Shown: positions 45,677 to 63,391 of the stretch, piece by piece
Layout of the letters: each line of letters starts with the position of its first letter
Position numbering within the stretch: position 1 is the stretch's first letter
From: a virus
Virus genome (UHGV): UHGV-1353888
Reading direction: 5' to 3' (one strand)
Length of the DNA: 64,000 nt
Notes under the pieces: model-generated
Database searches by the model: none
The model's input: the letters and a program-made list of their open reading frames with translations, nothing else
What the model was told of the DNA's origin: nothing
Made by a program: the position numbers and the translations under genes

Positions 45677-45677
45677 C

Positions 45678-46283: not shown

Positions 46284-46293
46284 GAACAAATAC

Positions 46294-47583: not shown

Positions 47584-47666
47584 ACTATAGCAGGGGAGAT
47601 TAAAATGTAAGGGGTCTCTTGTGTCATACAAAATAAAACCCCAGGAACGCGCCAACGTTCCTGGGG
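47584..47666 (-). promoter_or_regulatory. terminator hairpin (47639-47666, 11-bp stem), T tract, then promoter: box 47618-47629, -35 TTACAT (47605-47610), -10 TATAGT (47584-47589)
   Basis: Minus-strand reading: CCCCAGGAACG...CGTTCCTGGGG TTTTATTTT GTATGACACAAG AGACCCC TTACAT n15 TATAGT. Confidence 0.5.
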
Positions 47667-47823
47667 TAGGTGTATTCATGTATTAGCCGCAAAAATTTTA
47701 GTGTAACAATTCGTCAACTAGTTCGTAGCAATAGGGGGTATAAAGATGGTTGAACTCAGGTGAGGTGTTGAGTAAGTGCAGAGGGAAAGGGTTGGGTGGA
47801 GCCGATGGATTCAAGAAACTGTT

Positions 47824-48318
47824 TCATGATACTAAATGGAATAAGGTTTTTGTATGTTTGGCCACGGGGAAAGCATTTGCTTCATCATGCACGGGTTCGA
47901 GTACACCTACTTCATTTACAGTCAGGTCCCTCACTTCCCAAAGGAAGCCATCTCTACCCACGTAAACAAAACGATAACGAATATCCTTATAGTCTGGTGG
48001 CTTAGGTACAGAGTTGGATTCCGGAGAATAGGTATCGTATGCAAAGATTCCTTTATTGGAATTAATGACATCATTCAAGGTCTTGTTAAAATCCCAGGAA
48101 GGTTTCTGTGTGCGGTATTCAATATTCCCTTGAAGGATAGACCAATAGATATACCCTGTGAAAGTGTCATGTGGTTTCCCAGCTATGACTTTAATTACAT
48201 TCTTTTCCATATCATACTGATATACTACGCTGGGGTCGCCAGTGATATGGAAGGGACCCAGGCTTGCATAAAGCAATTGAAGGGCACGAGCTATTTTCTT
48301 AGGGTCTTCTCTAGACAT
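47824..48318 (-). CDS. hypothetical protein (164 aa)
   Basis: ATG ORF. Confidence 0.5.
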   Translation of the reverse strand: MSREDPKKIARALQLLYASLGPFHITGDPSVVYQYDMEKNVIKVIAGKPHDTFTGYIYWSILQGNIEYRTQKPSWDFNKTLNDVINSNKGIFAYDTYSPESNSVPKPPDYKDIRYRFVYVGRDGFLWEVRDLTVNEVGVLEPVHDEANAFPVAKHTKTLFHLVS

Positions 48319-48829
48319 TGTGGCTGGAATAAATTTGAGTTGAAGCGGGCGAAGCGTTCGTATCGTCCTCCATCAGTTTGATTTTATTTACTAGAGCGGT
48401 GAGGTCACGTCGTACATTTCGGAATTCCTGGCTGATATTAATCGTGTCACTCTCCATATCGAGATACATGGCGTGAACCATGCGAATAATAATCAGGTCC
48501 TCCGCTCGCTTGTCAATAGAAGGGGAAGCCATTGAGCGGAGGAACCGAGCCATGTTCATCATGAACTTTGAATTGCTCTTGATTCCCTGCCAGTGGTTCA
48601 TGAAATCGTTCAGGTAGAATAGGGCCTTGCTCACATCTTCCCTACGCTTACGTTGTCCACCCTTGAGTCCACTCCGCCAGAGATACTTGATGCAGTTGCC
48701 CATATCAAAGGGAAGGTAACGGGTAAGCTCAATACATTCCATGCCCGAGGGGTGGGAAGTGTAGTGGCTGGGATGGTTAACGATAGACTGGTTGTCAAGG
48801 ATAGATTCGATTACGTCTTTTTGATTCAT
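48311..48829 (-). CDS. conserved phage protein, DUF3310-like by motif recall
   Basis: HPSHY...GMECIE...IKYLWRSGLKGG...EDVSKALFYL pattern. Confidence 0.45.
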   Translation of the reverse strand: MNQKDVIESILDNQSIVNHPSHYTSHPSGMECIELTRYLPFDMGNCIKYLWRSGLKGGQRKRREDVSKALFYLNDFMNHWQGIKSNSKFMMNMARFLRSMASPSIDKRAEDLIIIRMVHAMYLDMESDTINISQEFRNVRRDLTALVNKIKLMEDDTNASPASTQIYSSHNV

Positions 48830-48860
48830 GTATTATTGTTTGGTTGAGTAGGGGAAAGTA

Positions 48861-49022
48861 TTAGTCGTGAATTCCGAGGGCTTCTCCGATTAGGCAGGAG
48901 CAGGTCCCCATGAATAAAAGGAGACAGAAGGCCGTCTGATTATAGGGGAGGTCTCCCGAACGGGCATCCATTAATGTTAGGGATACGCCCGTTAAGAGAA
49001 GGATATGCAGGGTTTTAGCCAT
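48861..49022 (-). CDS. small membrane protein (53 aa from the ATG at 49022)
   Basis: Hydrophobic LHILLLTGVSLTL...CLLLFMGTCSCLIG. The track's longer ORF overlaps the upstream gene. Confidence 0.35.
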   Translation of the reverse strand: MAKTLHILLLTGVSLTLMDARSGDLPYNQTAFCLLLFMGTCSCLIGEALGIHD

Positions 49023-49323
49023 TAACGTAGTTGTCAATATCTTCCTGGATAGCCCAGGCTTCCTCATAATAACGGATTTGAATATTGCAAAGCTTCTTGA
49101 ACGCGAAGAACGTTAAGACCAAATAGAGCGCATAGGCCGAGACGAACGTTACGTAAGAGATGAAGTTCTTAGGGGTCATAACGAGTATAAGAAACACTAC
49201 GATGAAGATGGTAACATCCAGGAGAGCCAGCATGGACATCCAGTCTCCAATTTTACGTGCTCTCATTTCGTGTTGTTCCTTGAGCTTTACTTTGTTGTCA
49301 ATGATTGATTGGTTGGTTGTCAT
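49015..49323 (-). CDS. two-TM membrane protein (102 aa)
   Basis: WMSMLALLDVTIFIVVFLILV and VTFVSAYALYLVLTFFAF. Confidence 0.5.
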   Translation of the reverse strand: MTTNQSIIDNKVKLKEQHEMRARKIGDWMSMLALLDVTIFIVVFLILVMTPKNFISYVTFVSAYALYLVLTFFAFKKLCNIQIRYYEEAWAIQEDIDNYVNG

Positions 49324-49378
49324 TTCGAGGTAACTTTATCAGATGGATTTAATATTGCAAGACTTTTCTTTGTCAATT

Positions 49379-49636
49379 TTATAACTTACTAAGATTTAAT
49401 TGGAAGGATAATATTCCCAGGCGAGGGAGAAATAGTCTCACCCCATTGCACCTATCTAAAATAGGATTGAGCAGATGAATCTTTGTGAGGGCCTTATTAA
49501 TTGAAAGGGTTGTTATTGACCACCCTATTCTATACATGGCTTCATCAATTTTTTCAATGTGGTCTGGCTGAGGGAATCCTATTCCCGTTAATGAGTTGGT
49601 AATCTTTTTTGTTGCTTTCTCTTTATCGGTATTCAT
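49379..49636 (-). CDS. hypothetical protein (85 aa)
   Basis: ATG ORF. Confidence 0.4.
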   Translation of the reverse strand: MNTDKEKATKKITNSLTGIGFPQPDHIEKIDEAMYRIGWSITTLSINKALTKIHLLNPILDRCNGVRLFLPRLGILSFQLNLSKL

Positions 49637-49659
49637 AGAACCTCTATTCTACCACAGTT

Positions 49660-50019
49660 CTAATCATCATTCAATTCTTTTGTTATGATGTCAATGCTTG
49701 TTTTGCAGTCAGACAATAATACTTTCTTTTCATCAGCCATTTCCTTGGGAACCTGCGTACCCCGGACCTTGGCTTCGAGACTAGTAACCCTGTCGAGTAT
49801 GGAACGAAGGGATTTGATTGCCGCAGGAGTGTCCAGGTTGGCCTTCCACATTTGCTCAGTCTCTGCTATCTTAATGACATAGATGAACAGGTCAGACCGG
49901 AGGGTGTAGAAATACCGGGCTTGGTTGGCTTGGGATATTACTTCTTCAAGATGGTCCGCATGAAGGGGGCCAGAAAGAAGAATGGCTATAGCTGATATTA
50001 GTGGGGTTGGTTTCTTCAT
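49660..50019 (-). CDS. secreted/periplasmic protein (119 aa) with N-terminal signal peptide
   Basis: MKKPTPLISAIAILLSGPLHA. ATGA overlap with the upstream gene. Confidence 0.5.
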   Translation of the reverse strand: MKKPTPLISAIAILLSGPLHADHLEEVISQANQARYFYTLRSDLFIYVIKIAETEQMWKANLDTPAAIKSLRSILDRVTSLEAKVRGTQVPKEMADEKKVLLSDCKTSIDIITKELNDD

Positions 50020-50468
50020 TTTCGGTGTGCTTGTAAAATGGCTAGTTCGTGGGATTCAAAGTATGAGGTATTTACGTGGGAACATATTTCTCCATCAGTG
50101 ATTTCAGTCCATGCCAACTCATAACCGCGGGCCTTGTCGAGAGCTTCTTCCATTGCTTCTTTGTCTTCCCCAAACTCACTGGGTTTATCTATGTATTCCT
50201 TTGAGTTTCGTATTATCTCAATGGCAGTCCATAAGGAATCAGTGATGGTAAAGTAACGAAGTTCCTGGTCGAAATCCATCTTTCCAAATCCGCTATAGAG
50301 AGCAACTACGTAGTTTCCTGGAAGTCCCGCGGCTCTGGTCAACAGGAAAGTAATCTTCGGTTCGCCTGGAATGGGGGCCTCTTCTACTTCCTGCTCCAGG
50401 CTGGGCTTAAACTGAATGTCTAGTTCAATCATCTTTGAGCAGTGGGGACACGGTATTTGATTTGTCAT
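50016..50468 (-). CDS. paralogue-family member with an N-terminal CPHC zinc-ribbon extension
   Basis: KITFLLTR...NYVVALY...FTITDSLWTAIEIIRN aligns to the family core. Confidence 0.5.
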   Translation of the reverse strand: MTNQIPCPHCSKMIELDIQFKPSLEQEVEEAPIPGEPKITFLLTRAAGLPGNYVVALYSGFGKMDFDQELRYFTITDSLWTAIEIIRNSKEYIDKPSEFGEDKEAMEEALDKARGYELAWTEITDGEICSHVNTSYFESHELAILQAHRK

Positions 50469-50827
50469 TGTGCTTCCTCCTTTTGTTTGAGTTCTTCCAG
50501 GAGAACCTCCTCATTGCCCACCTGTATATTTTGAGTGTTCAGGTTGATAATCTTCCTATGCCCATCACCTGTGTAATTTAGTTCAGCCAGATAGATGTCA
50601 TGTTCGAATAATTGCCATGCTCTTTTCCTCTTTTCATAGGTTCCAAAGATGTCACTAGGCCAGTTGCCTACATTCTCTCGGTCTTCAACAAGAGAGATAG
50701 CTTCCTCCAATGTATTCACAACCGTCAGGTATTCTAGTTTAATAATGCGGCCTACCTCTTTGTAGATGACTACACGGAAATAATTACCTGGGGTACGATA
50801 GATTGAAAATGTAAGTTGTGGGTTCAT
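50465..50827 (-). CDS. paralogue-family protein 1 (120 aa)
   Basis: LTFSIYRT..NYFRVVIYKE...VNTLEEAISLVEDR. ATGA coupling on both sides. Confidence 0.6.
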   Translation of the reverse strand: MNPQLTFSIYRTPGNYFRVVIYKEVGRIIKLEYLTVVNTLEEAISLVEDRENVGNWPSDIFGTYEKRKRAWQLFEHDIYLAELNYTGDGHRKIINLNTQNIQVGNEEVLLEELKQKEEAQ

Positions 50828-51183
50828 TTCTTGCTCAGTTCTCTCTTTTTGAATTCCATGAGAAGGTCAAACTCTTTTTCATCCATAAGGTTTACGGCGA
50901 TGTTATAGACTACTCCCCGGCCAGCGTAGATGCAAGCTTCCATGAGAAGTGCCGCGTCATCATTAGGTACATTCTTAAAGAAAATCCATCTGTCTTCATC
51001 ATCATCAAACCCATCGTCTGGTCGTTTCTTGTAGTTATTCCTGTCTTCCGCTACCTGGATAGCTTCCTCCAGTGTATCAACTACTTCAATATGTTTAGTA
51101 AGGAAAACCAGGGTGTCTTCTTTGAAAATACTTACCCTGAACTTGTTCTTTTTGGTTCGGTGAATTGAAAAAGTTAATATCAT
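50824..51183 (-). CDS. paralogue-family protein 2 (119 aa)
   Basis: LTFSIHRT..NKFRVSIFKED...HIEVVDTLEEAIQVAEDR...DGFDDDEDR. Confidence 0.6.
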   Translation of the reverse strand: MILTFSIHRTKKNKFRVSIFKEDTLVFLTKHIEVVDTLEEAIQVAEDRNNYKKRPDDGFDDDEDRWIFFKNVPNDDAALLMEACIYAGRGVVYNIAVNLMDEKEFDLLMEFKKRELSKK

Positions 51184-51536
51184 TTATTCTCTCCTTCCAT
51201 TTCGGCTTGACATTTCATAAGTAGGGAAAGCTCTTTCCGGTTTACATGGCTCTCGTATAGAGCGTATTGTATTTCTTTGTTGTGGTCTACATAGCATTCC
51301 AAGAGAGCACGGTCATACTCAGTGCGTCTCCAGAATTCACGTCTATCTTCATCCGTTTCAAAGCCGTCACTCAGTCGGTTCTTATAATGCTTCCTGTCCT
51401 TGGCCAAGGCGATAGCTTCCTCTAGCGTATCAACCACCTCAATGTGTTTGATGGCGAACGAGAGAGCGTCTTCTTTGAAAACAATGACCTTGAATTTATT
51501 ATCGTTGGTCCTATAGATTGTAAAAGTTAATTTCAT
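51180..51536 (-). CDS. paralogue-family protein 3 (118 aa)
   Basis: LTFTIYRT..NKFKVIVFKED...HIEVVDTLEEAIALAKDR...DGFETDEDR. Confidence 0.6.
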   Translation of the reverse strand: MKLTFTIYRTNDNKFKVIVFKEDALSFAIKHIEVVDTLEEAIALAKDRKHYKNRLSDGFETDEDRREFWRRTEYDRALLECYVDHNKEIQYALYESHVNRKELSLLMKCQAEMEGENK

Positions 51537-51868
51537 TTGTCTAGTAGGGTTTTAAGGAGGGAGTATTCATTAGAGTCAAGAAGGTAGTCACCGTAGATTT
51601 TATATTCTAAATCCCCTTCGTCATTAATCCAGGTTACTATTAGGGGTGGGTCTGTATTTGTCATCCAGAAACTATTTCGAGCAGGGTCCGTTTTGAATTT
51701 ATCATCAGGTTTCTTCTCCAAGCTATCCCATTCTTTCACCAGTTGAACAGCCTGTTTCAAGGTATCAAATTCATCAATGTATAGGGGGTAGGACTGATAC
51801 CTGTCTTCTTCGAAAATAATTACTCGGAAGTTGCCTTCATCAGTTCGTAATATATCGTAGGTTTTCAT
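51533..51868 (-). CDS. paralogue-family protein 4 (111 aa)
   Basis: YDILRT..GNFRVIIFEED...FDTLKQAVQLVKE. Confidence 0.55.
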   Translation of the reverse strand: MKTYDILRTDEGNFRVIIFEEDRYQSYPLYIDEFDTLKQAVQLVKEWDSLEKKPDDKFKTDPARNSFWMTNTDPPLIVTWINDEGDLEYKIYGDYLLDSNEYSLLKTLLDK

Positions 51869-52215
51869 TGGGGTAATTCTTTCTCTATAAATTCAATAAG
51901 CTTGGTAAGTTCGTCAGGGTCTACTCTAGACTGATACAGGTTACATGCAATTTGGTTGTCCGTATTCACATAAAATTCCAGAAGCTCCACATCTCTGAGT
52001 AAACTTCTCCATATGTCTTCCCTTTCATCATCAGATTCATAGCCATCATCCAGCAGGTCCCGATAATCTTCCCTGTGTCTGGCTATCCATAATGCTTCAT
52101 CCAAGGTATAGGTTGTTGCCATGTGCTTGACATAGAAGTTCCTACTATCTTCTTTGAAAATAAAAACCCGGAACCTATTGTTAGGGGTTCTATAAAGGGT
52201 GAATGTAATTTTCAT
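51865..52215 (-). CDS. paralogue-family protein 5 (116 aa)
   Basis: ITFTLYRT..NRFRVFIFKED...YTLDEALWIARHRE...DGYESDDER. Confidence 0.6.
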   Translation of the reverse strand: MKITFTLYRTPNNRFRVFIFKEDSRNFYVKHMATTYTLDEALWIARHREDYRDLLDDGYESDDEREDIWRSLLRDVELLEFYVNTDNQIACNLYQSRVDPDELTKLIEFIEKELPQ

Positions 52216-52550
52216 TTTAAAAAGGCATCTGCAATTTGTTTTCTTTGAGTGAGCTTAACCTCCCGAATAGTGAAGCCAAGTCTTTCCTTAAACGTATATA
52301 CCGTGGAATAGGCCATCTTGTTTTTGCAGGGATAATAAGTAAGAAGCGTTCCCATTCTTGAGACATTATCAAAGCCGTCACTCGGCCACTCCTTGTAAGT
52401 ATCCCTACCCTTAATGAGCGAGATGGCCTCCTCGAACGAATCCATATACTGGACGAGATGGACACAGTTTCGATGGGTAGCCGTCTCTTCGAACAAGAAA
52501 ATACTATAGTACGAATCGTCCATTTCGTACAGTTCAAACGTTATGTGCAT
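52212..52550 (-). CDS. paralogue-family protein 6 (112 aa), most divergent
   Basis: ITFELYEMDDSYYSIFLFEE...MDSFEEAISLIKGR...DGFD. Confidence 0.55.
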   Translation of the reverse strand: MHITFELYEMDDSYYSIFLFEETATHRNCVHLVQYMDSFEEAISLIKGRDTYKEWPSDGFDNVSRMGTLLTYYPCKNKMAYSTVYTFKERLGFTIREVKLTQRKQIADAFLK

Positions 52551-52554
52551 TAGA

Positions 52555-52859
52555 TTAAAGAAGGGGTTTAAGGGATTTATAAATACTGGAATTAACCGCG
52601 GCGGGATAAATATGTTTGACTATTTTGGTAAATCCCATTGCTGGTTTAACGCTAGTCTGAACAAGAAACTTTGTACTTCTCCTGGAGTATAACCTCTGCA
52701 CATTAGCAGGATAGATTACATCGGGGAGGGTAGTGTTTACGTCAAAGGTAGAGTATAGATTCTTAATGTACGTAATGGCCTCTTCGAGCGAATAGGTCTA
52801 TAGCCATCCTTAGCCGTCAAGAGCAAATCGTAGGTTAAGTATTTTTCTTCTTCGTTCAT
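52555..52859 (-). pseudogene. frameshifted, N-terminally truncated remnant of the paralogue family
   Basis: ATG at 52859 gives MNEEEKYLTYDLLLTAKDGY then a stop. The adjacent frame reads SLEEAITYIKN...KFLVQTS through to the TAA at 52555. Confidence 0.4.
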
Positions 52860-52906
52860 ATGTCTTACTATAGTATGTGATTTTTAAATGTCGAGATTAT
52901 TTTTTG

Positions 52907-53704
52907 TCATTCTCTTTCAAGAAACTTAATCTCGTCGTATTTTGATTTGACTTTTTCAAGGAAGGATTTGAGCATAGTTCTTTCTAATTTGGTAGCCGTC
53001 CTTGGGAGCCTAAAGTGATTCAGGGTTTGTCCTGTATGTCCTTTCTTTCCAGAGTTCTCATTAACAAGAGATACCATAACAGGAATACGGGAGGTGTTGC
53101 TTACCCTGAAATAGGTGTGTTGGTCAGGTGTCCCGTTAATATCTACAAAATTTATATCCTCAATCCTTTTCATAACTTCCTCCAATGTTTTGAAGATACT
53201 ACTCTCGATAGCTTGGGAAGATGTGGTCGTTTCCCTGTAGAAAGTGAGAGCATACTTGTCTTCTAGCTGTAGATAATGCACGGAGAAGGTTACATGGATT
53301 CCATTATCCTTACGGTTTTCCCTCTCAATAAAAGCCTTGGTTTCATCATATAGTTCGGTTACTTTCAGCCATTCGTCAAGAGAAGGAGGGCCCTCCTGGT
53401 ATTCACCTATGAATACTTCGAGTTGTCCTATGTCGCTAAGACAAAGCTCAACCAGAACATGAAGATTCTTAAAACGAAGGAATTCTTTGGTGGCTTCTAT
53501 CTCGCTTCCATATGTACAAAAAGTAATGAGGTTCCTGCTCTTGCAAAACTTAATGACATAATCCAGTTTCTTATGGCTTATAATCCCCAAAACTTTGAAG
53601 GAATACATGGCGGAAGAAGTCGTCTCTTCGGTTGCTACCCCCACATACTTTTTTGATTGGGGGTGATAGTACAGGCCAAAGGTAATGTGTTTCAAGTTCT
53701 TCAT
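52907..53704 (-). CDS. protein with two tandem copies of the paralogue-family domain (265 aa from the ATG at 53704)
   Basis: HITFGLYYHPQSKKYVGVATEE and HVTFSVHYLQLEDKYALTFYRE...FKTLEEVMKRIED. The track start 53818 overlaps the upstream gene by 109 nt. Confidence 0.5.
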   Translation of the reverse strand: MKNLKHITFGLYYHPQSKKYVGVATEETTSSAMYSFKVLGIISHKKLDYVIKFCKSRNLITFCTYGSEIEATKEFLRFKNLHVLVELCLSDIGQLEVFIGEYQEGPPSLDEWLKVTELYDETKAFIERENRKDNGIHVTFSVHYLQLEDKYALTFYRETTTSSQAIESSIFKTLEEVMKRIEDINFVDINGTPDQHTYFRVSNTSRIPVMVSLVNENSGKKGHTGQTLNHFRLPRTATKLERTMLKSFLEKVKSKYDEIKFLERE

Positions 53705-53709
53705 TTTAA

Positions 53710-54291
53710 TTATAGGGGCATTCTTGAAACGATGGTGAGTTCCTTGGAAAGAATAACGGAGGCCCATGAGAGGCGCATATACTTTGCAAGTTCCGTCAGG
53801 AGGTTGAGGCTCAAACAAGCGGTATTTCCAAGCCGTCTTTCGGGCTCTACTCCGTTCTTGTCCAGACTGATACTAAGGTGAAGAGCAAGGAAAGCCAGGG
53901 CCAGCTTTGGAAGATTCTCACATTCCTTTAGAAGGCTTGCCACCTGCTTTTTGTCCAACGTTGAATAAGAACTCCTGTTCTCCATGTCAATACCATGGCC
54001 GTGAATCTTGGCAAGGTTTTTATTGTAGCAATGCAAGGCGCGGGTGAATGAAGAGTTGAATACATGGTTCAAGTCCTTCCGGTGTTCACTACAGAACTCA
54101 ATGGGGTTCTCAACCCGGCACAAAGTAATAGCATCCTGAATCAGAAATGCCTTAGAAGTTGCGGGAACCATAAGGCCAAACAATACATTTTCAGGCGTTG
54201 TTTTTTCAGTATAGGCCCGTTCAATAAGAGCCTTGCTGGTTCCTTCTTCGGTAAAGGTGAATTCGTTTTCGGAAATATTATCGTTCATCAT
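53710..54291 (-). CDS. hypothetical protein (193 aa)
   Basis: ATG-ATG start, no motif recognised. Confidence 0.5.
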   Translation of the reverse strand: MMNDNISENEFTFTEEGTSKALIERAYTEKTTPENVLFGLMVPATSKAFLIQDAITLCRVENPIEFCSEHRKDLNHVFNSSFTRALHCYNKNLAKIHGHGIDMENRSSYSTLDKKQVASLLKECENLPKLALAFLALHLSISLDKNGVEPERRLGNTACLSLNLLTELAKYMRLSWASVILSKELTIVSRMPL

Positions 54292-55986: not shown

Positions 55987-56018
55987 TTCTTTTTGTCTTT
56001 CTATTTTTGTTTGTAGTT

Positions 56019-56711
56019 TTAGAGATTGTAGAATTTAATATATTCTTCCCTGCTTTTAAATGTCCTCACCTTCCCCCCGTGACCGTTGTATACGATTGTT
56101 TCAATTCCTTCGCCATTCGAACGGTTGTCATAAACATGAATAGTAGAGCCGTCTTTTAAAGTAAAAGCCGTAGCAATTCCCTTATACTTAGGGTTTTTAC
56201 GGGAGACTACACTGCGTGCGAGGTTGTAATTAGTATACACACGCCCCATTTTTTGAGGCCACGGGTATGGGGTGCTATCCAGGCTCATAAACACAAGGTC
56301 CATGCCGTTAGGATAGGAAAAGAAGTCCCATTTTTCCGGAGCTAGTTCGGCATCCCATTTGACTAGGTGAGTTAGCGAAAATTGGAACTGTGCATAGAAC
56401 GGAACCAAATCCTCAAAGGCGAAAAGGAAACGTGCTCCCTGCTCAATAGCGTACTTAACCATTTTTTTACCAAATCCTTTCCCCCGGAATAGGTGAGAGA
56501 CTATGAGGGAAACAAGTTCCCCCTCCGCGGTTATCGAAAATACTCCGACGATGGAGCCGTCATTTACTAGCCTGAAACACTTGCATCCATTATCCCTGTA
56601 CCAGTCACCGGGGTAAACGTCAACATGTGCTTTCTCCATGTCTGACAGATAATGGCGCAGTTCCCCTGCAAGGCTCTCCATTGCATAAGGATTTATCTTT
56701 TCAATATACAT
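56019..56711 (-). CDS. GNAT-family N-acetyltransferase domain fused to a ~120-aa C-terminal domain of unknown function
   Basis: GNAT motif A VGVFSITAEGELVSLIVSHLFRGKGFGKKMVKYA. Conserved leader AAATAGAAAGACAAAAGAAAATG. Confidence 0.6.
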   Translation of the reverse strand: MYIEKINPYAMESLAGELRHYLSDMEKAHVDVYPGDWYRDNGCKCFRLVNDGSIVGVFSITAEGELVSLIVSHLFRGKGFGKKMVKYAIEQGARFLFAFEDLVPFYAQFQFSLTHLVKWDAELAPEKWDFFSYPNGMDLVFMSLDSTPYPWPQKMGRVYTNYNLARSVVSRKNPKYKGIATAFTLKDGSTIHVYDNRSNGEGIETIVYNGHGGKVRTFKSREEYIKFYNL

Positions 56712-56774
56712 TTTCTTTTGTCTTTCTATTTGTTGTGCCGGACGTTTTGGCCTCCGGCTCGCCTTACATGAACA

Positions 56775-56830
56775 GTTATACCATAGGAGCGGGGAAAAAC
56801 AAGACTAATCTTTTTTGTCTTGTGTCATAC
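56775..56830 (-). promoter_or_regulatory. promoter: box 56819-56830, -35 TTGTTT (56797-56802), 16-nt spacer, -10 TATAAC (56775-56780)
   Basis: Minus-strand reading: GTATGACACAAG n16 TTGTTT n16 TATAAC. The leader carries a GCCGGAGGCC...GGCACAAC hairpin. Confidence 0.45.
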
Positions 56831-57644
56831 ACCAATTAAACGCCGCTTTACCTTGTTCAGAAATGGCCCATGGACTAAAAGAACGGTGGACAATACGGGG
56901 GCGGGTAACCACTTCTGCTAGAATACATCCATCTTCTTCCGTGCTTTTATCACAATTGCATGGCATAGGGGTTCCCTTGCATTCTCCTCCCCTGTTTTTA
57001 CGAATATGGCTCTCATAATCCATTGTTAGTAGCAATTCCTTTAACTCTTTCATGGCCTTATAATTATGGAAAGGGTAAGCCATTCGCAAAGAGGTAGAGC
57101 TAAAATTCTCTGACTCTAAATAGATTGTGAGATAAAACTCCTTATTCTCCGTGTTTTCCGTAACGTGTGCAGTATACACGGCTTCCTCACCCTCCAAAAT
57201 GTTCACAACGTCAGCCTCATACTCAATATATTGAGTTTCATGGAGTTCTTCCGTTTTTGCAGGTTGTTTCGGAGCGTCCTTAACGGGCGTAGCGTACACA
57301 TCAACCGTTGCACAGGGGAGGCCAAAACAGGGATATTGATTAAAAGAATCCTCCGTTCCCTCAATTTCGACAATTACCTTCCATTCAGCGCGGAAATCGT
57401 CAAGTTCAGCGCGGTCTTCCTCGCTAAGTTCGCCTTCATCATCTCCATACCCCATTAAATAAGGGAATGCCCATTGAGGAACGCCCTCAACCCTTTCGTA
57501 ACTGTCTGACGTTTCGTCCATTTCGGTCAATACAAGATAGGTACTTCCGCAATGGGGGCATAGTCCGTTTAGAGGCGTAACGCTTCGGTTATCGCATTCC
57601 ATGCAGTCATATTTTTCGTTTTCGTCGATAATAACAGTGCTCAT
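56805..57644 (-). CDS. acidic Cys-rich protein (279 aa)
   Basis: CMECDN...CPHCGS N-terminus and PCNCDKS C-terminus. Conserved leader. Confidence 0.5.
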   Translation of the reverse strand: MSTVIIDENEKYDCMECDNRSVTPLNGLCPHCGSTYLVLTEMDETSDSYERVEGVPQWAFPYLMGYGDDEGELSEEDRAELDDFRAEWKVIVEIEGTEDSFNQYPCFGLPCATVDVYATPVKDAPKQPAKTEELHETQYIEYEADVVNILEGEEAVYTAHVTENTENKEFYLTIYLESENFSSTSLRMAYPFHNYKAMKELKELLLTMDYESHIRKNRGGECKGTPMPCNCDKSTEEDGCILAEVVTRPRIVHRSFSPWAISEQGKAAFNWCMTQDKKD

Positions 57645-57804
57645 TTTTCTATGTTTTCTATTTTAGTTTGTTGGTTGGTTGCGGGGTTGTGTTCCCCTTA
57701 CGCAATCCTTTATATTATATTAGAGGGGAAACGCAAGGGAAATGTTCATGCCTTGTGTCATACTTAACTGTTAAGGAGTTATGAAAATGTTCCACGTGGA
57801 ACAT
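57645..57804 (-). promoter_or_regulatory. repeat element A: promoter (box 57752-57763, -35 TTGCGT, -10 TATAAA 57709-57714), CTTAACTGTTAAG palindrome, 20-nt palindrome AATGTTCCACGTGGAACATT
   Basis: About 85% identical to elements B, C and D. Confidence 0.5.
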
Positions 57805-57805
57805 T

Positions 57806-58375
57806 TCAGGCGATTACAGTCTTTTTGACGGATAAGGTCAAATGATAGCAGGGGGAAAAGGTTTCAGAACTTATGTCATAGGAGCAGGTGGCCCGCAACT
57901 CTTCATGTTCTGCTTCAACCATTTCCGCTAGTTCGTTAGGCGAACAATCCAGAACAGGGGTGTACGCCTCAATCTTGGTGAGGAAAAAATTGGCTTTAAT
58001 TTCTTTTATCTTCCCTCCATTCTTTTTAACAAGGTCTTCAACGGTGGCCAGAGCGGCGGTTAAAATTTCCTTTCGTTTGTCCTGCAAAATAGTAATGATT
58101 GCAAGGTCTTTTCCGTCAATGTTTTGGATGCGGGAACAGACAAGAAAACCTTGTTTATGCAGAGCATTAAGAGCTTTATCTCTCTTGTCCACCGGAACGG
58201 CAATGCGTCGAATGTTGTGCTCTACCTGCTTCTCCGTTGCTGATTGCAGGTCATAAACCTTACAACCTAAACCGTTTAGAGATTGCAAGATAATTTTTGA
58301 TAATAAATCTTTAGGCATCTTTTTTAATAAGCCATGTTGTTTCAGTAGTTTCCCGGTCAAATCCAATGCTTGCAT
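57806..58375 (-). CDS. hypothetical protein (189 aa; alternative ATG at 58318)
   Basis: ATG ORF. Overlaps the ORF at 58311-58544. Confidence 0.5.
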   Translation of the reverse strand: MQALDLTGKLLKQHGLLKKMPKDLLSKIILQSLNGLGCKVYDLQSATEKQVEHNIRRIAVPVDKRDKALNALHKQGFLVCSRIQNIDGKDLAIITILQDKRKEILTAALATVEDLVKKNGGKIKEIKANFFLTKIEAYTPVLDCSPNELAEMVEAEHEELRATCSYDISSETFSPCYHLTLSVKKTVIA

Positions 58376-58544
58376 AGGACGGCCCTACAAAGTCACTGAC
58401 TTCACGGACGATTTTAACGTCTGGACCTGCTTTAGCTAAAACCCTTAATAGCAAGTTCTTTCCGGGTTTAAAAGAGAGTTCTACTTTTTCAACCTCTTCC
58501 CGGTTGTTCAAATGACTTAATGCTTCAAATAATTTCTTGTTCAT
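58311..58544 (-). CDS. hypothetical small protein (77 aa)
   Basis: ATG ORF. Confidence 0.4.
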   Translation of the reverse strand: MNKKLFEALSHLNNREEVEKVELSFKPGKNLLLRVLAKAGPDVKIVREVSDFVGPSYASIGFDRETTETTWLIKKDA

Positions 58545-58549
58545 GTTTT

Positions 58550-58966
58550 TTATACGTTAAAGTTAAAGGATTTTTGAACATTTCTACCCTGTACAGTTAC
58601 AGAGGTGAGGGCATACATTTTATACTGCAACATGTACGTGTTTTGTTCGGATTTTAAGGCCTGAATTTTGGAATCATACTTGTTTGTATTGTCAATCGCA
58701 ATCTCTACCATGATACAATATGCAAACCACAATAGAGTTAAAGCACTTGCATAAACTCCAACAATACAAAAAAGTTCTGTTATGCTAGTCCCATTGTAAA
58801 TTTTTATTGCTAAAATAACCACAAGAATAAAGGCAAGCCATGCGGAAATTCTTTCAAAGTTCAATCCATCCAAGGCCCTATATATTCCCCTCCACCTTTT
58901 AAATGAGCGGGTGAGTTCCGAAATCTCACGGGCGTGAACAAAGCTAGCGTAAAAAGCGTATTTCAT
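58550..58966 (-). CDS. membrane protein (138 aa, 2-3 TM)
   Basis: WLAFILVVILAIKIY and LFCIVGVYASALTLLWFAYCIMV. Confidence 0.5.
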   Translation of the reverse strand: MKYAFYASFVHAREISELTRSFKRWRGIYRALDGLNFERISAWLAFILVVILAIKIYNGTSITELFCIVGVYASALTLLWFAYCIMVEIAIDNTNKYDSKIQALKSEQNTYMLQYKMYALTSVTVQGRNVQKSFNFNV

Positions 58967-58971
58967 AAATG

Positions 58972-59172
58972 TTAGAAGTTAAGGGATGATACAAAACGCT
59001 TCATTTCGGCGATTGAGGCACATTCAAAAGTTAATGCCGGGTTCCAGTTTGAGCGGAAAACATAGCCATCTTCCTTTTTCTGGACATAGGCGAACGTAGA
59101 AATTAGCTCTTCCCGGTCATTCACAAAACTATTCTTCAACCTATCTAATGCTTCCATATCTGTTTTATTCAT
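58972..59172 (-). CDS. hypothetical small protein (66 aa)
   Basis: Conserved leader AATTAGAAAGACATAAGAAAATG. Confidence 0.45.
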   Translation of the reverse strand: MNKTDMEALDRLKNSFVNDREELISTFAYVQKKEDGYVFRSNWNPALTFECASIAEMKRFVSSLNF

Positions 59173-59290
59173 TTTCTTATGTCTTTCTAATTTTTGTTGT
59201 TATTACGGGGTTGTGTCTCCCTTACGCATTTCTTTATACCATTTTTGAGAGAGGATGCAAGGAGAAATGTTGAAACCTTGTGTCATACAG
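59173..59290 (-). promoter_or_regulatory. repeat element C: promoter (box 59277-59288, -35 TTGCAT, 16-nt spacer, extended -10 TGGTATAAA)
   Basis: Conserved blocks CCCTTACGCA and CTTTATA, as in elements A, B and D. Confidence 0.5.
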
Positions 59291-59492
59291 AAGATTGTGG
59301 TTCTTTCGGAACCGTTATCATGCCATACTTTTCAGGGTTGTAAAAGTCCTGCCAAGTGAGATACTCCTTGCTTTTACAATTGGGGCAAGTCTCCTCATTA
59401 AGGGGTACAAGTCCTTTCCATCCGCAACCATTGCACACAACGCAATCACCTAAGCCGAAATAAGTTGTAAATTCCATGGTGATTAAAGACAT
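59283..59492 (-). CDS. small zinc-ribbon protein (69 aa)
   Basis: CVVCNGCGW...CPNCKS. Confidence 0.45.
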   Translation of the reverse strand: MSLITMEFTTYFGLGDCVVCNGCGWKGLVPLNEETCPNCKSKEYLTWQDFYNPEKYGMITVPKEPQSSV

Positions 59493-59749
59493 TCGATTAC
59501 ATGGTCACTTTCCGGAATGCGGAGAATGGGAACAGGGGAATCATCCAAATTTTCAATGTCATACTCTTCCAAAAAATCTTTAATGGGGTATTCTAAAAAC
59601 ATGAGTTTTATGTCCATTAGGGATAACGCTTCTCCCTGCATTTCTTCAATATATTCAAAAATAACTTTGGCCCCCATAGGGGAAAAATCACAACCCGCTT
59701 GAACTAAATAATTATGAAATGGTTGATAGCTATTTATTTTTAAATTCAT
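59483..59749 (-). CDS. hypothetical small protein (88 aa)
   Basis: ATG ORF. Confidence 0.45.
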   Translation of the reverse strand: MNLKINSYQPFHNYLVQAGCDFSPMGAKVIFEYIEEMQGEALSLMDIKLMFLEYPIKDFLEEYDIENLDDSPVPILRIPESDHVIECL

Positions 59750-59767
59750 TATTTTAGGTCTTTCTAA

Positions 59768-60097
59768 TTATTTTTTATTTTTCAGTCTCATTTTATATCC
59801 TTTCAAAACAAGCTTTTCAAGTGGTCCAGATATGATATAATAATTTCTATTTTCATCATTAATTCCGGAGTGAAAAATATAGTTCCCGGATTGGCCATTC
59901 TTCACTAGTTCTTCCTCAAAAGCTCTAAGAATTAGAAGAGTATACCTGTTTTTATCTTCGGCAATCTTCCTAGCGTTAAAACCTGTAACGGCGTTCCAAT
60001 CTTCCCACTCTACAATATGCCCTTTAAGGTATACAGGCTTTAAATTTAACTTGCTTGCACGGATAATGCCAGATGGCGTTTTTATAGTTGTTTTCAT
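59768..60097 (-). CDS. hypothetical protein (109 aa)
   Basis: Conserved leader and ATG. Confidence 0.5.
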   Translation of the reverse strand: MKTTIKTPSGIIRASKLNLKPVYLKGHIVEWEDWNAVTGFNARKIAEDKNRYTLLILRAFEEELVKNGQSGNYIFHSGINDENRNYYIISGPLEKLVLKGYKMRLKNKK

Positions 60098-60207
60098 TTT
60101 TCTATTTTATGTTGGAGAAATGCCCCTTACGCAATCCTTTATATAATATTAGAGGGATTATGCAAGGAAAATGTTCATGGCTTGTGTCATACTTAACTGT
60201 TAAGGAG
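60098..60207 (-). promoter_or_regulatory. repeat element B: promoter (box 60181-60192, -35 TTGCAT 60160-60165, -10 TATAAA 60138-60143), CTTAACTGTTAAG palindrome
   Basis: Near-identical to element A across about 100 bp. Confidence 0.5.
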
Positions 60208-60546
60208 TTATGAAGAAATATATGATTCCAGCATGCGGGGGTGCGTGGTAAATTTCAGCTCTCTCCCTTCATAAATGATAAAGCCTTTTATGGTGCTGTC
60301 CTGATTCATCCTTCTTTTTAACTCCACAACTAGCTCAAAAAGAACGGTATGCCCACATAAACACCACGCTAGCAGGGGGTGAGTTACAAAATCGCCCGCC
60401 TCATTTTGAGTAACCGGGCAGATACGTATAATATCTCTGTCATCATTTTCATCATATAAGTCCCAGAACATAAATGTGTTATCATACACAACACATTCCT
60501 GAAAAATGTCTCTCAATTCCTGCAAATATTCACTCACTTCTTTCAT
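60208..60546 (-). CDS. hypothetical protein (112 aa)
   Basis: ATG ORF. Confidence 0.5.
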   Translation of the reverse strand: MKEVSEYLQELRDIFQECVVYDNTFMFWDLYDENDDRDIIRICPVTQNEAGDFVTHPLLAWCLCGHTVLFELVVELKRRMNQDSTIKGFIIYEGRELKFTTHPRMLESYISS

Positions 60547-60560
60547 TTTCGTATTCCTTT

Positions 60561-60872
60561 CTAAGCCATAAACTTACATAATTCCCGCTCATTTACTCTC
60601 ACAACACTATAACCATAACGGGAGGCCATTAGTTCCACGCCATTTTGATGATTCCGTGTCGTCAAAGAGTATTTTTCATCGCTAAGGTATACTATTTTAG
60701 TACAGTCATCCTTGTAAGCGATTGGCGTTAGATAGCTATACAGGACGGATTCTGAAAAACTAAGGCGAATAACGGTGCCGTAAGTGTAACTGGATTCACA
60801 TTTAGGAGATTTTCCTTCCTGCTTTTCTCCGTCAAAATACTTTTTCAAAAGGTCTTCAATGTATTTTCTCAT
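60561..60872 (-). CDS. hypothetical protein (103 aa)
   Basis: ATG ORF. Confidence 0.5.
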   Translation of the reverse strand: MRKYIEDLLKKYFDGEKQEGKSPKCESSYTYGTVIRLSFSESVLYSYLTPIAYKDDCTKIVYLSDEKYSLTTRNHQNGVELMASRYGYSVVRVNERELCKFMA

Positions 60873-60924
60873 TTTTCTTTAAGATTGCGGACGGGAGAAC
60901 CATTATCTCCCGCCCTAATTGTTA

Positions 60925-61318
60925 TTAACCAAGATAAGCTTCTTTTCCAGCGGCCCCCATTTCGGAATAATTAATGTCACGCCAAAGACCATGATTAGGT
61001 TGCACGTAGGTTTCATCTATGACATTGCAAGTTCTGAACAATTTGGAGTCTTCGTAACCAATGTCCATGTTTTCTTTGTTAAACCTAAGCACGATTCCTT
61101 CCCAATTTGTAAAATCTTCCAAATCCTCAATGCAATCCTTAATATCGAAGGGTTGAACATCAAAACAAATACCCCGGATAAGCGCGGAATTTTCATCCTC
61201 CGTGTAAATCGCAATATGCAACCTCCCCCCCGCTATTATCTTCGTAAACCCTGTAGGTATATGCTCCTTTGCACAATTCATCAAGGATAATCACTTCATC
61301 ATTCATTTCTTTGTTCAT
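60925..61318 (-). CDS. gene interrupted at a G7 homopolymer (C7 on the plus strand at 61226-61232): the 61318 frame (42 codons) and the 61284 frame (119 codons) would fuse with a 1-nt slip
   Basis: The conserved leader GGCACAACAACTAATAAAAATATACAATATCATG and promoter E sit in front of 61318. Removing one G gives ...YEDNSGG-RLHIAIYTEDENS... Confidence 0.4.
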
Positions 61319-61372
61319 GATATTGTATATTTTTATTAGTTGTTGTGCCCCCTTCTTGGGAGAACAAGGTCA

Positions 61373-61426
61373 ATTTAGCATAGGGCACATGTTATGCAAG
61401 AAAAAACTTCATCATTTTTGTCATAC
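61373..61426 (-). promoter_or_regulatory. promoter E: variant box GTATGACAAAAA (61415-61426), -35 TTGCAT (61394-61399), 15-nt spacer, -10 TAAATT
   Basis: Same architecture with a degenerate box. Confidence 0.35.
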
Positions 61427-61431
61427 TAGCT

Positions 61432-61704
61432 TTAGTGTTGCACGTCCCTTACTTCGTAATAACGGGGTAAAACAATGACTTGTGAGGTTTCTTTCTTAAA
61501 GTCCATGTAACAGGGGTTCAATCTGTCTAAATTATCTCCTAAATCAATATTCTCAATGAGTTGACAGAGATTATCCCAATTTATAATACCGTGAGTAAAT
61601 CCTAAAAACGTTCTCTTTCCCTCCTTAGAGTCATAAACGGCAAGCAAAAAACTTCCTTCCGTTCTGTTTTCAAAAATTTGATACTCCTTTTCTGCTTTTT
61701 TCAT
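61432..61704 (-). CDS. hypothetical protein (90 aa)
   Basis: Leader AAATTAGAAATACATAAGAAAATG. Confidence 0.5.
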   Translation of the reverse strand: MKKAEKEYQIFENRTEGSFLLAVYDSKEGKRTFLGFTHGIINWDNLCQLIENIDLGDNLDRLNPCYMDFKKETSQVIVLPRYYEVRDVQH

Positions 61705-61741
61705 TTTCTTATGTATTTCTAATTTAATCTGTTATAAATAT

Positions 61742-61987
61742 TCAGGGCCTAATCTCTTCGTGAGTTTTATACACGGCCCGCCATGAAGATGAAGAAGCGT
61801 CATAAATCACAAACCCAGAATAGCCGGACTTGTTAAGGGTATTTCTTCTTTTCAATTCTTCCCATGCGTCCATTTTAAGGCGAGATAAAGTGTGTCGTCC
61901 ATCATCATAATAAGAGTCTGTACTTCCGCAAATAGGCATGATTCTTCCAGATAAATCTGGCTTGCAAAATGTAATTACTGGCTTCAT
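61742..61987 (-). CDS. hypothetical protein (81 aa)
   Basis: ATG ORF. Confidence 0.45.
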   Translation of the reverse strand: MKPVITFCKPDLSGRIMPICGSTDSYYDDGRHTLSRLKMDAWEELKRRNTLNKSGYSGFVIYDASSSSWRAVYKTHEEIRP

Positions 61988-62009
61988 TTTATTATTATTA
62001 TTTAAGGGT

Positions 62010-62315
62010 TTATACTAAGTCGATAGCGCGTAAAAACAAACGCTTGTCATGGTCAAAATAGGTCCACCCGTACTTTCCGGGGTTATATCCGATTACTTTC
62101 CGGTTCCCGTGTATCTGGTGAGGCATCCATTCGACACTGATATTTTCCTCCCCTACCCCGTGGATGACGGCATGAGTTCCTTCCTCCATCAATTCCCGGA
62201 GGGTTCCGAAACGGACAAAACTGCGGGCAACTTGGTAGTGTGTATGACCTTCCTTTTTGCAATACTCTTCTGCAAACTTATGCAGGCCCTTGCTTGGTTT
62301 TTGTATGATTATCAT
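62010..62315 (-). CDS. hypothetical protein (101 aa)
   Basis: The track start 62345 is TTG. The ATG at 62315 follows the leader GGAAAGACATAAAACATG. Confidence 0.5.
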   Translation of the reverse strand: MIIIQKPSKGLHKFAEEYCKKEGHTHYQVARSFVRFGTLRELMEEGTHAVIHGVGEENISVEWMPHQIHGNRKVIGYNPGKYGWTYFDHDKRLFLRAIDLV

Positions 62316-62334
62316 TGTTTTATGTCTTTCCAGT

Positions 62335-62556
62335 TTATTTTCCAAGGGATATTTTAGTAAGGGCCTCCCTCATTTTCTCCATGCTAGCGGCGTATATAAA
62401 ATGACGCACAAGGGGAGTTGCATCCGTGCGGGTTGCAAGATAACCTAACCCTGTTTTATCAATCCAATAAGGCACTGATTCCAGAGTTATCCTTGCCCCT
62501 TCTGCCCCTAATTTTTCCAGCTCCAATAGTGCTTTTAAATCGTTGGATGTTAACAT
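62335..62556 (-). CDS. hypothetical small protein (73 aa)
   Basis: The track start 62622 lies inside promoter element D. The ATG at 62556 follows the leader AATAGAAAGATACAAGAAAATG. Confidence 0.45.
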   Translation of the reverse strand: MLTSNDLKALLELEKLGAEGARITLESVPYWIDKTGLGYLATRTDATPLVRHFIYAASMEKMREALTKISLGK

Positions 62557-62700
62557 TTTCTTGTATCTTTCTATTTTAGTTCGTTGCTTGGTTGGTTGTA
62601 GGGTTGTGTTCCCCTTACGCATTCTTTATAGCATCTTTGAGCAGGGGAGCAAGCTTTTTCTTTTAGGCTTGTGTCATACAAAATTGTCCCACGTGGAACT
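62557..62700 (-). promoter_or_regulatory. repeat element D: promoter (box 62668-62679, -35 TTGCTC, 16-nt spacer, extended -10 TGCTATAAA 62625-62633) plus CCACGTGG hairpin
   Basis: Conserved blocks shared with elements A, B and C. Confidence 0.5.
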
Positions 62701-63386: not shown

Positions 63387-63391
63387 CTTCT

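Follow-up and report, generated by a model that had tools for sequence, protein, structure and literature searches.

We analyzed a stretch of 64,000 nucleotides of the UHGV virus genome UHGV-1353888 (hereafter the window, which means this whole stretch at its full length) with respect to a 12-nt sequence, the box, that recurs upstream of predicted promoters. The window is part of an uncultivated phage with a genome of approximately 69–73 kb, of which approximately 7 kb lies outside the window. The plus-strand arm (1–46283) encodes PolA, an HNH endonuclease, an SNF2 helicase, a PD-(D/E)XK nuclease, TerL, structural genes, and a 3284-aa open reading frame (ORF). The minus-strand arm runs from 63580 down to 46402 and consists of small ORFs with hardly any family matches; each of its cassettes opens with a boxed promoter, which a small stem-loop in the leader and the A-rich leader sequence TAGAAAGA...ATG follow. 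Outside the window, a control region rich in repeats, approximately 2.5 kb long, separates the two diverging arms. No match was found in INPHARED for the terminase protein or for an 8-kb DNA stretch of the window, and the TerL homologs found were metagenomic proteins. In IMG/VR, we found one strain with approximately 98% identity (contig 3300045988_146009, hereafter strain 146009) and approximately 35 relatives whose TerL is 59–76% identical. Further members of the family are contigs 138114, 157058, 134760, 139056, 090100, and ERZ28574984 scaffold_156.

The box sites of the window and the core promoters assigned to them are as follows. The promoters, the -35 and -10 hexamers, and the starts were predicted from the sequence only.

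62668–62679, minus: box of P62668, exact copy of GTATGACACAAG; strain 146009 has GTATGACACAAA as the orthologous box, and L485 has GTATGACAAAAA
62625–62652, minus: core promoter P62668, TTGCTC, 16 nt, TG-extended TATAAA, starting 15 nt past the box
61415–61426, minus: box variant GTATGACAAAAA of P61415; the orthologous promoter in L105 and L111 (TerL 76% identical) has the exact GTATGACACAAG
61372–61399, minus: core promoter P61415, TTGCAT, 16 nt, TG-extended TAAATT
60181–60192, minus: box of P60181, exact copy
60138–60165, minus: core promoter P60181, TTGCAT, 16 nt, TATAAA
59277–59288, minus: box of P59277, exact copy, overlapping the TGA stop of the upstream ORF
59233–59260, minus: core promoter P59277, TTGCAT, 16 nt, TG-extended TATAAA
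57752–57763, minus: box of P57752, exact copy
57709–57736, minus: core promoter P57752, TTGCGT, 16 nt, TATAAA
56819–56830, minus: box of P56819, exact copy, within the last codons of the 279-aa ORF 56805–57644
56775–56802, minus: core promoter P56819, TTGTTT, 16 nt, TG-extended TATAAC
47618–47629, minus: box of P47618, exact copy, proximal class with 7 nt to the -35; terminator 47638–47667 just before
47584–47610, minus: core promoter P47618, TTACAT, 15 nt, TG-extended TATAGT; ATG 9 nt on
10220–10231, plus: box variant GTATGACACAAC of P10220, proximal class with 6 nt to the -35; terminator hairpin and T tract 10190–10219 just before
10238–10265, plus: core promoter P10220, TTGATA, 16 nt, TG-extended TATAAC
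22186–22197, plus: box variant GTATGACACAGA, in the loop of the terminator hairpin AACCCCGC/GCGGGGTT (22175–22205)
22204–22230, plus: ambiguous core promoter after box 22186, TTGCTT-15-TTATCC, or -10 TATATT at 22216–22221
18616–18627, minus: near-copy GTATGACACAAA with 1 mismatch, within a plus-strand ORF and antisense to it; nothing promoter-like follows; probably non-functional

The box is a real feature with strong enrichment, and it goes together with -35/-10-like promoters. Six exact copies of GTATGACACAAG, every one on the minus strand, occur in the window, compared with approximately 0.008 expected from length alone. With up to two mismatches, 16 matches were found, the mean in dinucleotide shuffles was 4, and none of the 100 shuffles reached 16; the most repeated 11-mer of the window is GTATGACACAA. 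An earlier reading of this DNA (hereafter the sequence-only reading) had judged the repetition to be beyond coincidence, which the shuffles bear out. It had also described a fixed, near-invariant 12-mer, with an exact 11-mer repeated many times, at no fewer than nine promoters on both strands. The repeated box and its nine sites stood, but only the 8-nt core GTATGACA is invariant, the tail [C/A]AA[G/A] varies, and the plus-strand copies are variants; moreover, the second plus-strand site lies at 22186–22197 and not, one position off, at 22185–22196. The consensus is GTATGACA[C/A]AA[G/A], with TTTTGT-ATG-ACAAAA as a looser form. The box is a short pseudo-palindrome of the kind found in ribbon-helix-helix operators, with a TGT-ATG-ACA core and T-rich and A-rich flanks.

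Literature searches with the motif strings gave only primers and unrelated matches, and the motif was absent from the searchable literature. NtcA, CRP, PhoB (TGTCATA half-site), IHF, and the DnaA box were considered as identities of the box and rejected, as the likeness by eye ended at 5–7 nt. An UP element, the site of the C-terminal domain of the RNA polymerase alpha subunit, is an A/T-rich tract at -40 to -60 without an invariant G/C-containing core. This identity was also rejected, as the invariant core GTATGACA has G and C, and relatives carry a separate AT-rich tract between the box and the -35.

Nine of the ten box sites fit the arrangement TT[GA]NNN at 6–7 or 15–16 nt, then 15–16 nt, then TA, compared with 1.7% of all window positions; the formal significance of this difference is inflated because the box copies are partly paralogous. 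At six sites, the box is followed by 15–16 nt, TTGCTC, TTGCAT (three times), TTGCGT, or TTGTTT, a further 16 nt, and TATAAA, TATAAC, or TAAATT. The proximal class comprises P47618 (box, 7 nt, TTACAT, then TATAGT) and P10220 (box, 6 nt, TTGATA, then TATAAC), with spacers of 15–16 nt. Site 22186 is ambiguous (TTGCTT-15-TTATCC, or TATATT 18 nt past the box) and is the weakest of the nine sites. The distance from the box to the -10 in the window lineage is 28, 37–38, or 47 nt, and the box centers lie at approximately -49 and -58/-59, plus -68 in L105. The architecture of box, -35-like, and -10-like elements in two distance classes was thus borne out at 9 of 10 copies. The extended TG, noted previously at two sites, was found as TGn at 6 of the 9 sites. 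Boxes right after a terminator were seen at 47618 and 10220, and the box at 22186 lies inside a terminator loop (22175–22212). An alignment of ten promoters gave invariant columns solely in the box, the CTTG of the -35, and the T..TA of the -10. The boxed promoters of the window have weak -35 hexamers (2–5 of 6 matches to TTGACA), often with TGn, and the unboxed promoters at 6117, 7054, 11585, 16366, and 45642 have TTGACA, TTGACT, or TTGACC hexamers. A generic sigma-70 scan was uninformative (40 sites vs 37 expected) and overlooked most boxed promoters because TATAAA lacks the final T.

We compared the boxes with those of close relatives, namely strain 146009, L485 (DNA 83–90% identical), and L105/L111 (TerL 76% and PolA 62–65% identical), and of distant relatives, namely L158/L243, L238, L240, L241, and L295 (TerL 59–64% and PolA 42–44% identical). 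The 8-nt core is better conserved than any other promoter part except the -10. In eight anchored orthologous promoter pairs (window, strain 146009, L485, and L105), the core GTATGACA was identical at 64 of 64 positions, and in the same comparison the identity was 98% for the -10 region, 81% for the box tail, 72–86% for the spacers, and 76% for the upstream flank. Orthologous boxes of the close relatives differ solely at positions 9 (C/A) and 12 (G/A). Strain 146009 and L485 have an extra boxed promoter on the replication arm, at a place outside the window (GTATGACAAAAA-15-TTGAAA-17-TAGGGT). At the position homologous to P10220, relatives have an unboxed promoter, TTGACA-17-TATAGT/TATATT.

The core occurs 3–10 times in the early regions of the distant relatives, with the consensus TTGTATGACAAAA[T/G]; L240 has only three cores, one of them without a recognizable promoter. 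The box is inverted relative to early transcription in these relatives, where CTTTTGTCATAC is followed by 27 nt of AT-rich sequence, TTGACA, 16 nt, and TAAAAT, and a second promoter family has the inverted box at 13–15 nt. The spacings from the box to the -35 are therefore 6/7, 15/16, and 25 nt in forward orientation in the window lineage, and 13, 15, and 27 nt in inverted orientation in the lineage with 59–64% identical TerL. The distance difference of one helical turn, which the sequence-only reading had pointed out, holds within the window lineage but is not general, as the inverted boxes of the sister lineage are centered at approximately -52, -53, and -65. Only some early promoters of the distant relatives are boxed, and L240 and L241 share one core promoter with and without the box, the upstream flank being exchanged. 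The box is joined to at least three unrelated promoter/spacer families in the window lineage and to two in the sister lineage. No core enrichment was found in approximately 36 loci (approximately 20 kb each) that cover the PolA-TerL-structural region of relatives.

Scanning IMG/VR for TTTGTATGACAAAA also matched contigs without any protein in common with the phage family. L246 and L341 (six copies each) and L351 (five copies) have a G+C content of 39% and an HK97-type terminase; all their copies are intergenic, and the box, which takes both orientations, is centered at approximately -33/-34 with respect to a TATAAT or TAAAAT hexamer.

L246 4385–4473, 7770–7822, 9846–9989, and 9105: boxed sites of L246

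The phages of this group (also L307) are siphovirus-like and apparently Shine-Dalgarno-poor, and they have a conserved GGTTAG 3–4 nt before the -10. The phage contig L251 has three boxes right after a 55-aa ribbon-helix-helix gene. A 15-mer scan of genome contigs gave taxonomically scattered matches, mostly by chance, with two exceptions. The first is a Prevotellaceae conjugative element (L399), which has three boxes in the traA/mobC intergenic region. The second is L466, in which TTTTTGTATGACAAAAA makes up the whole 17-nt spacer of a perfect TTGACA/TATAAT promoter (TTGACA-t-TTTTGTATGACAAAA-a-TATAAT) that precedes a gene for a 62-aa ribbon-helix-helix protein. This promoter was present in all five homologous loci fetched (L487–L491), with one-base palindrome variants in L487 and L488/L489; in L487, the ribbon-helix-helix gene adjoins a tyrosine integrase.

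L466 1600–1660 and L487–L491 approximately 2940–3000: L466-type promoters

The proteins of the L466-type family have 57–62 aa and start with MAKAGRPKADVTKEK, and one homolog is NikA-like. The promoter and gene together have what looks like a textbook autoregulation layout. The motif is thus shared by relatives with PolA only 42–44% identical, by phage contigs of no relation, by a conjugative element of Prevotellaceae, and by elements linked to an integrase, and the phage-specific factor proposed earlier is not supported.

The box accompanies promoters that are not homologous to one another, and elements both related and unrelated carry it in either orientation and at several distances. It is a discrete conserved site upstream of a sigma-70-type core and is separable from it, with variable sequence between the two, non-homologous promoters downstream, and orthologous cores on which it is optional. 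The cores themselves are of host type: TTGACA-16-TAAAAT with AT-rich UP-like tracts in relatives, and TTGACA/TTGACT/TTGACC at unboxed promoters of the window. Since the core is fully conserved, separable, and used in both orientations and at several distances, it is best explained as a protein site on duplex DNA. We therefore consider it probable, with fair confidence, that the box is a putative operator or enhancer for a small DNA-binding protein at host-polymerase promoters. Such a protein, binding the double-stranded site in a sequence-specific manner, would modulate the host-type (sigma-70-like) RNA polymerase at the promoter immediately downstream. In the window phage, the box would act as an upstream, class-I-like activator site, and in other elements, where it lies across the -35 or takes up the spacer, a site of this kind would serve as an operator for a repressor. 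We lean toward activation in the window phage because weak -35 hexamers, often with a TG-extended -10, mark the boxed promoters, and the unboxed ones have TTGACA-type hexamers. The proposal of the sequence-only reading that the box is the binding site of a protein, at a genuine promoter element under selection, is thus kept as the best reading, with the 64/64 footprint pointing to it.

Several observations weigh against this operator reading. The boxed promoters of the sister lineage already have consensus strength, unlike what a requirement for an activator would suggest. The box centers of the two lineages (approximately -49, -58/-59, and -68 vs approximately -52, -53, and -65) do not share one helical phase. 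Many copies are paralogous, and the fixed spacing would be partly inherited rather than selected. Furthermore, a Pfam scan found no DNA-binding domain in the early or small ORFs of the window or of the approximately 7 kb outside it. A hidden Markov model of the motif-adjacent ribbon-helix-helix family matched nothing in the window, L154, L236, L485, or the relatives, and nine distant ribbon-helix-helix loci in IMG/VR were without the motif. The earlier claim that the box defines the temporal regulon is not supported: boxes head early-type cassettes, two structural operons, and the last minus-strand operon, as well as a replication-arm operon in the sister strain; several promoters on both arms have no box, and the orthologous cores of relatives occur with and without it.

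We surveyed approximately 65 ORFs (Pfam for all, PHROG for 17) for a binder, and found no helix-turn-helix, ribbon-helix-helix, HU/IHF, zinc-finger-activator, MotA/AsiA, sigma, or polymerase family. Ribbon-helix-helix genes have the motif within or beside their promoters in three independent cases (the L466 family, L251, and L399), and a ribbon-helix-helix protein is a lead for the binder. With half-sites of the form TGT-N3-ACA, a dimer of the helix-turn-helix type would fit less well than a monomer or a binder with a beta-ribbon. The binder could be phage-encoded with an unrecognized fold, host-encoded, or supplied by a co-resident mobile element. A single host-specific factor is unlikely because the motif occurs in elements that use Shine-Dalgarno sequences (L251 and the L466 type), in elements that do not (the phage family and the L246 type), and in a Prevotellaceae element. 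This leaves a mobile family of regulators, a host protein with very wide conservation, or convergent evolution toward a simple palindrome.

An explanation without a separate factor is that the box is the best-preserved piece of a promoter cassette of the T4 PeSL type that was duplicated and shuffled, its spacing and sequence being inherited. The promoters do have homologous spacers (ATGAAcATTTtcC), leader stem-loops, and an A-rich leader in common, and a cassette of this kind has a precedent in T4-type phages (PMC2839356, PMC4122927). The repeats D5, D9–D11, and D14 each consist of an early promoter and a stem-loop flanking small ORFs, as in mobile PeSL-like promoter cassettes. Approximately 2.7 kb of early cassettes (59289–62000; L153 7698–8065 / L112) is present in the window only and not in strain 146009; the breakpoints lie inside repeated promoter units, one of them exactly at the 5' edge of the box at 59288, and the difference resembles PeSL-like modular shuffling. 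The flank exchange between L240 and L241 at one core promoter is of the same kind. Inheritance of the cassette, however, does not account for a core that is identical at 64 of 64 orthologous positions next to sequence with 72–86% identity, that is unchanged in lineages with PolA only 42–44% identical, and that stands on non-homologous promoters and in unrelated phages and other mobile elements. We consider this explanation unlikely; the repeats do recombine, but this seems to follow from their presence and not to explain why the box exists.

It is very unlikely that the box is a core promoter element, whether for a phage or virion RNA polymerase, a MotA/AsiA-like system, or a phage sigma factor. 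The 3284-aa ORF (35754–45608, plus), which lies in a higher-GC stretch (50–55%) at the end of the structural arm, is without detectable homologs and could in principle hide a polymerase; the box takes the -35 position in the unrelated L246-type phages; and it includes ATGACA in forward and TTGTCA in reverse, each with 5 of 6 matches to TTGACA. Nevertheless, sister lineages have the box in opposite orientations, and within one lineage its distance to the -10 differs by as much as 20 nt. A fixed orientation and a fixed distance, as at promoters of single-subunit or virion RNA polymerases, were not found (28, 37–38, and 47 nt; inverted in the sister lineage). A TTG-type hexamer properly spaced to a TA hexamer is always there, and relatives have the consensus TTGACA-16-TAAAAT with the box optional. 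The 3284-aa ORF has no DFDxD motif and no match in Pfam, PHROGs, or PDB sequences, and no MotA, AsiA, or sigma family match was obtained in any scan. The orientation flips and the variable spacing therefore argue against a polymerase recognition element, and they argue equally against an RNA signal. The two mechanisms that the sequence-only reading had put forward, a MotA-like box and recognition by a phage RNA polymerase, are not supported: the variable geometry and the sigma-70-type cores speak against the polymerase, for which no match was obtained among the ORFs scanned, and a MotA-like replacement of the -35 does not agree with a TTG-type hexamer kept at the -35, a box 6–16 nt upstream of it, and Pfam scans without MotA or AsiA.

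A strand-oriented signal of DNA metabolism (a Chi-like hotspot or nuclease attenuation site, a nicking site, or a site of cassette recombination) is highly improbable. The core is an asymmetric 8-mer, its copies are co-oriented in each arm (those of the early arm on the minus strand of the window and those of the other on the plus strand; in relatives, mostly on one strand), cassette breakpoints lie near boxes, and two HNH endonucleases are encoded, all of which would suit such a signal. The copies are, however, only intergenic and at fixed offsets from promoters, and they are not enriched in the PolA-TerL-structural loci of relatives; moreover, the L466-type motif exactly fills a promoter spacer, and the L246-type boxes take either orientation at the same promoter position. 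Action of the box in RNA, as a processing, stability, or termination-related signal of read-through transcripts between cassettes, is scarcely credible: several copies do lie right after or within terminator hairpins, and the co-oriented genes of an arm would place the box in read-through RNA, but inversion in the sister lineage and the two orientations in L246-type phages would change the RNA sequence, Rfam gave no match, and the position is fixed relative to the downstream promoter rather than to the upstream gene end.

The surroundings of the boxes have further features. The palindrome GTTCCACGTGGAAC lies just upstream of two boxes of the window, at 57788–57802 and 62686–62700. Leader stem-loops begin at approximately +1 and read GGGGAACACAACCCC, CCGGAGGCCAAAACGTCCGG, or CUCCCAAGAAGGGGG, followed by an ACAAC-rich tract; their stability is modest (z -1.1 to -2.7), and relatives also have leader hairpins, which are analogous but of different sequence.

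57672–57712, 59196–59236, 62589–62629, 56735–56790, and 61335–61380, minus: leader stem-loops

A Shine-Dalgarno GGAGG is present at hardly any gene of the window, the exceptions being around 27100, 50016, 50824, and 63392. The early genes instead have a conserved A-rich leader, TAGAAAGAC(A)TAAGAAAATG, for example at 56712–56735, 59173–59196, and 62556–62580 (minus), and this leader is also found in the relatives with PolA 42–44% identical. Many 16S rRNAs have CUUUCU, the complement of AGAAAG, at their extreme 3' end. The leader pattern suggests a Shine-Dalgarno-poor, perhaps Bacteroidota-like, host or an unusual initiation signal. Some promoters of the late arm have the -10 only 6–8 nt before the ATG: TTGACC-17-TATATT-6-ATG at 45640–45680 of the window (plus), and TTGACA-17-TATAGT-8-ATG in relatives (L002–L037, approximately 12490–12560). 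This short distance implies leaderless or near-leaderless mRNAs, as far as the predicted hexamers are correct. At 46293–46337, where the gene arms converge, a perfect 17-bp inverted repeat (CAAAAAGCCCCGAAGAG/CTCTTCGGGGCTTTTTG, repeat I16) is probably a bidirectional terminator. No tRNAs and no Rfam matches were found in the window.

The non-coding control region of approximately 2.5 kb in relatives contains tandem 9-bp iterons (GGTTCCGTG, GGGTGCAAT) and DnaA-box-like TGTGGAAA repeats. Lying between the divergent arms, these repeats probably mark an origin or a region bound by an initiator, and they are not the same as the 12-mer box.

L158 2632–2670 and 5044–5070, L105 600–1000, L155 12–70: control-region repeats in relatives

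Two genes of the window are free-standing HNH/NUMOD4 (I-HmuI-like) genes, at 62703–63395 (minus), just upstream of the box at 62668, and at 2543–3274 (plus), right after PolA; in the relatives with TerL 76% identical, two different HNH-like genes head the early arm. A tandem array of seven overlapping paralogous genes of approximately 110–150 aa, with ATGA start/stop overlaps and internal direct repeats approximately 350 nt apart, occupies 50016–52550 (minus). The only small early protein common to both phage lineages is a 103-aa DUF8033 (PF26096) protein at 60561–60872 (minus). It is a candidate binder, although nothing ties it to the box; further candidates are the Zn-ribbon/DUF6926 protein and the small Cys4 proteins described below, and a 62-aa basic coiled-coil protein at 63392–63580.

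L105 8013–8327, L238 1993–2313, L241 1484–1813: orthologs of the DUF8033 protein

The Zn-ribbon/DUF6926 protein (56805–57644) and the GNAT acetyltransferase (56019–56711) are also common to both lineages. Many small Cys4 (CxxC...PCxxC) zinc-ribbon proteins are encoded in the early and control regions, at 59283–59492 and in the N-terminus of 56805–57644 in the window, and at 7758–7928, 8182–8433, and 9339–9593 in L154; one type is common to the unrelated contig L251 (1165–1446). The 3284-aa ORF could be a giant virion or ejection protein. An N4-like or crAss-like identity of the phage, prompted by this ORF, was rejected on the results given above for the ORF (PHROG, Pfam, PDB, and DFDxD) and for the terminase and the 8-kb DNA stretch in INPHARED.

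The phage family is undescribed, and the kind of element, a conserved regulator box on phage promoters, is well known; the finding is solid but ordinary. The family lacks any cultured or annotated relative, and its gene regulation can be approached only through the promoter grammar. The box is a precise marker of transcription units in the family and offers a bait sequence for the regulator, for example TTTTGTATGACACAAG. There is also a hint that unrelated mobile elements of the same habitat use the same operator. A wider interpretation, rather doubtful, is that TTTTGTATGACAAAA is a shared operator word read by one small DNA-binding protein family, possibly ribbon-helix-helix, whose members come from hosts or from resident mobile elements. 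In that case, gut phages of no relation to one another, a conjugative element of Bacteroidales, and elements linked to an integrase would all answer to one regulatory signal, and a lytic phage without such a protein would retain the site on its early promoters so as to sense a factor of the host or of a co-resident element, or to come under its control. A binder encoded by the host or a mobile element would mean cross-talk between a lytic phage and its cellular context, and a phage-encoded binder would mean a new DNA-binding fold.

We compared the box with known systems. The T4 MotA box is centered at -30 and replaces the -35. The boxed promoters resemble MotA promoters as a class marked by a conserved non-sigma box and a good, often extended, -10. 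Unlike the MotA box, the box of the window lies upstream of a kept TTG hexamer, with centers at approximately -49 and -58/-59, and only L246-type phages have it at the -35 position. MotA/AsiA homologs were absent from the approximately 65 ORFs scanned, although very divergent analogs are possible.

The sites of class I/II activators such as CRP/FNR, and of the monomeric MarA/SoxS/Rob (marbox), measure 22 bp for CRP and 20 bp for the marbox, and the orientation of the marbox can differ with distance. The box shares with them a discrete site upstream of or overlapping the -35, distances approximately a helical turn apart, and a variable orientation; the weak -35 hexamers at the boxed promoters of the window phage are a further likeness. 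In contrast, the box is only 8–12 bp long and has TGT-N3-ACA as its core, the phage gave no match to the CRP or AraC family, the phasing differs between lineages, and the promoters of the sister lineage are consensus-strength. The sites of P2 Ogr and P4 Delta are TGT-N12-ACA centered near -55, and phi29 p4 activates some promoters and represses others by position. As in these systems, a phage promoter family has a conserved upstream TGT/ACA dyad at approximately -50 to -60. In contrast to the Ogr/Delta sites, the dyad spacing is 3 nt and not 12, the boxes head mainly early-type cassettes and not late genes, and the motif also occurs in unrelated elements. No Ogr_Delta zinc-finger match was found in the phage ORFs scanned.

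Tripartite middle promoters have been reported in crAss-like phages (bioRxiv 10.1101/2020.03.07.982082). The likeness consists in an apparently Shine-Dalgarno-poor host and in -35-like and -10-like blocks with a third conserved block. Identity with these promoters was rejected, as the third block of phi14:2 P070 and P075 is TTTG directly downstream of the -10 (AAAACTTGAC...TATATTATATTTG), with no similarity to GTATGACA. The PeSL of T4-type phages are cassettes of an early promoter and a stem-loop (PMC2839356, PMC4122927). The cassettes of the window resemble them in the repeated promoter and stem-loop units around small ORFs of unknown function and in the strain indel breakpoints within the repeats, whereas PeSL have no separate invariant upstream box conserved across families and unrelated elements.

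Ribbon-helix-helix operators are usually arrays or tetramer sites, in contrast to the single sites of the window, and a cognate gene was detectable not in the phage family but only in the L466 type, L251, and L399, so that the association consists of three cases, one of them a family related by descent. In regard to the site itself, the box resembles the operators of CopG, Arc, omega, and NikA/MobC in its short pseudo-palindrome, its close half-sites, and its use in either orientation, which is also the way in which omega heptads work.

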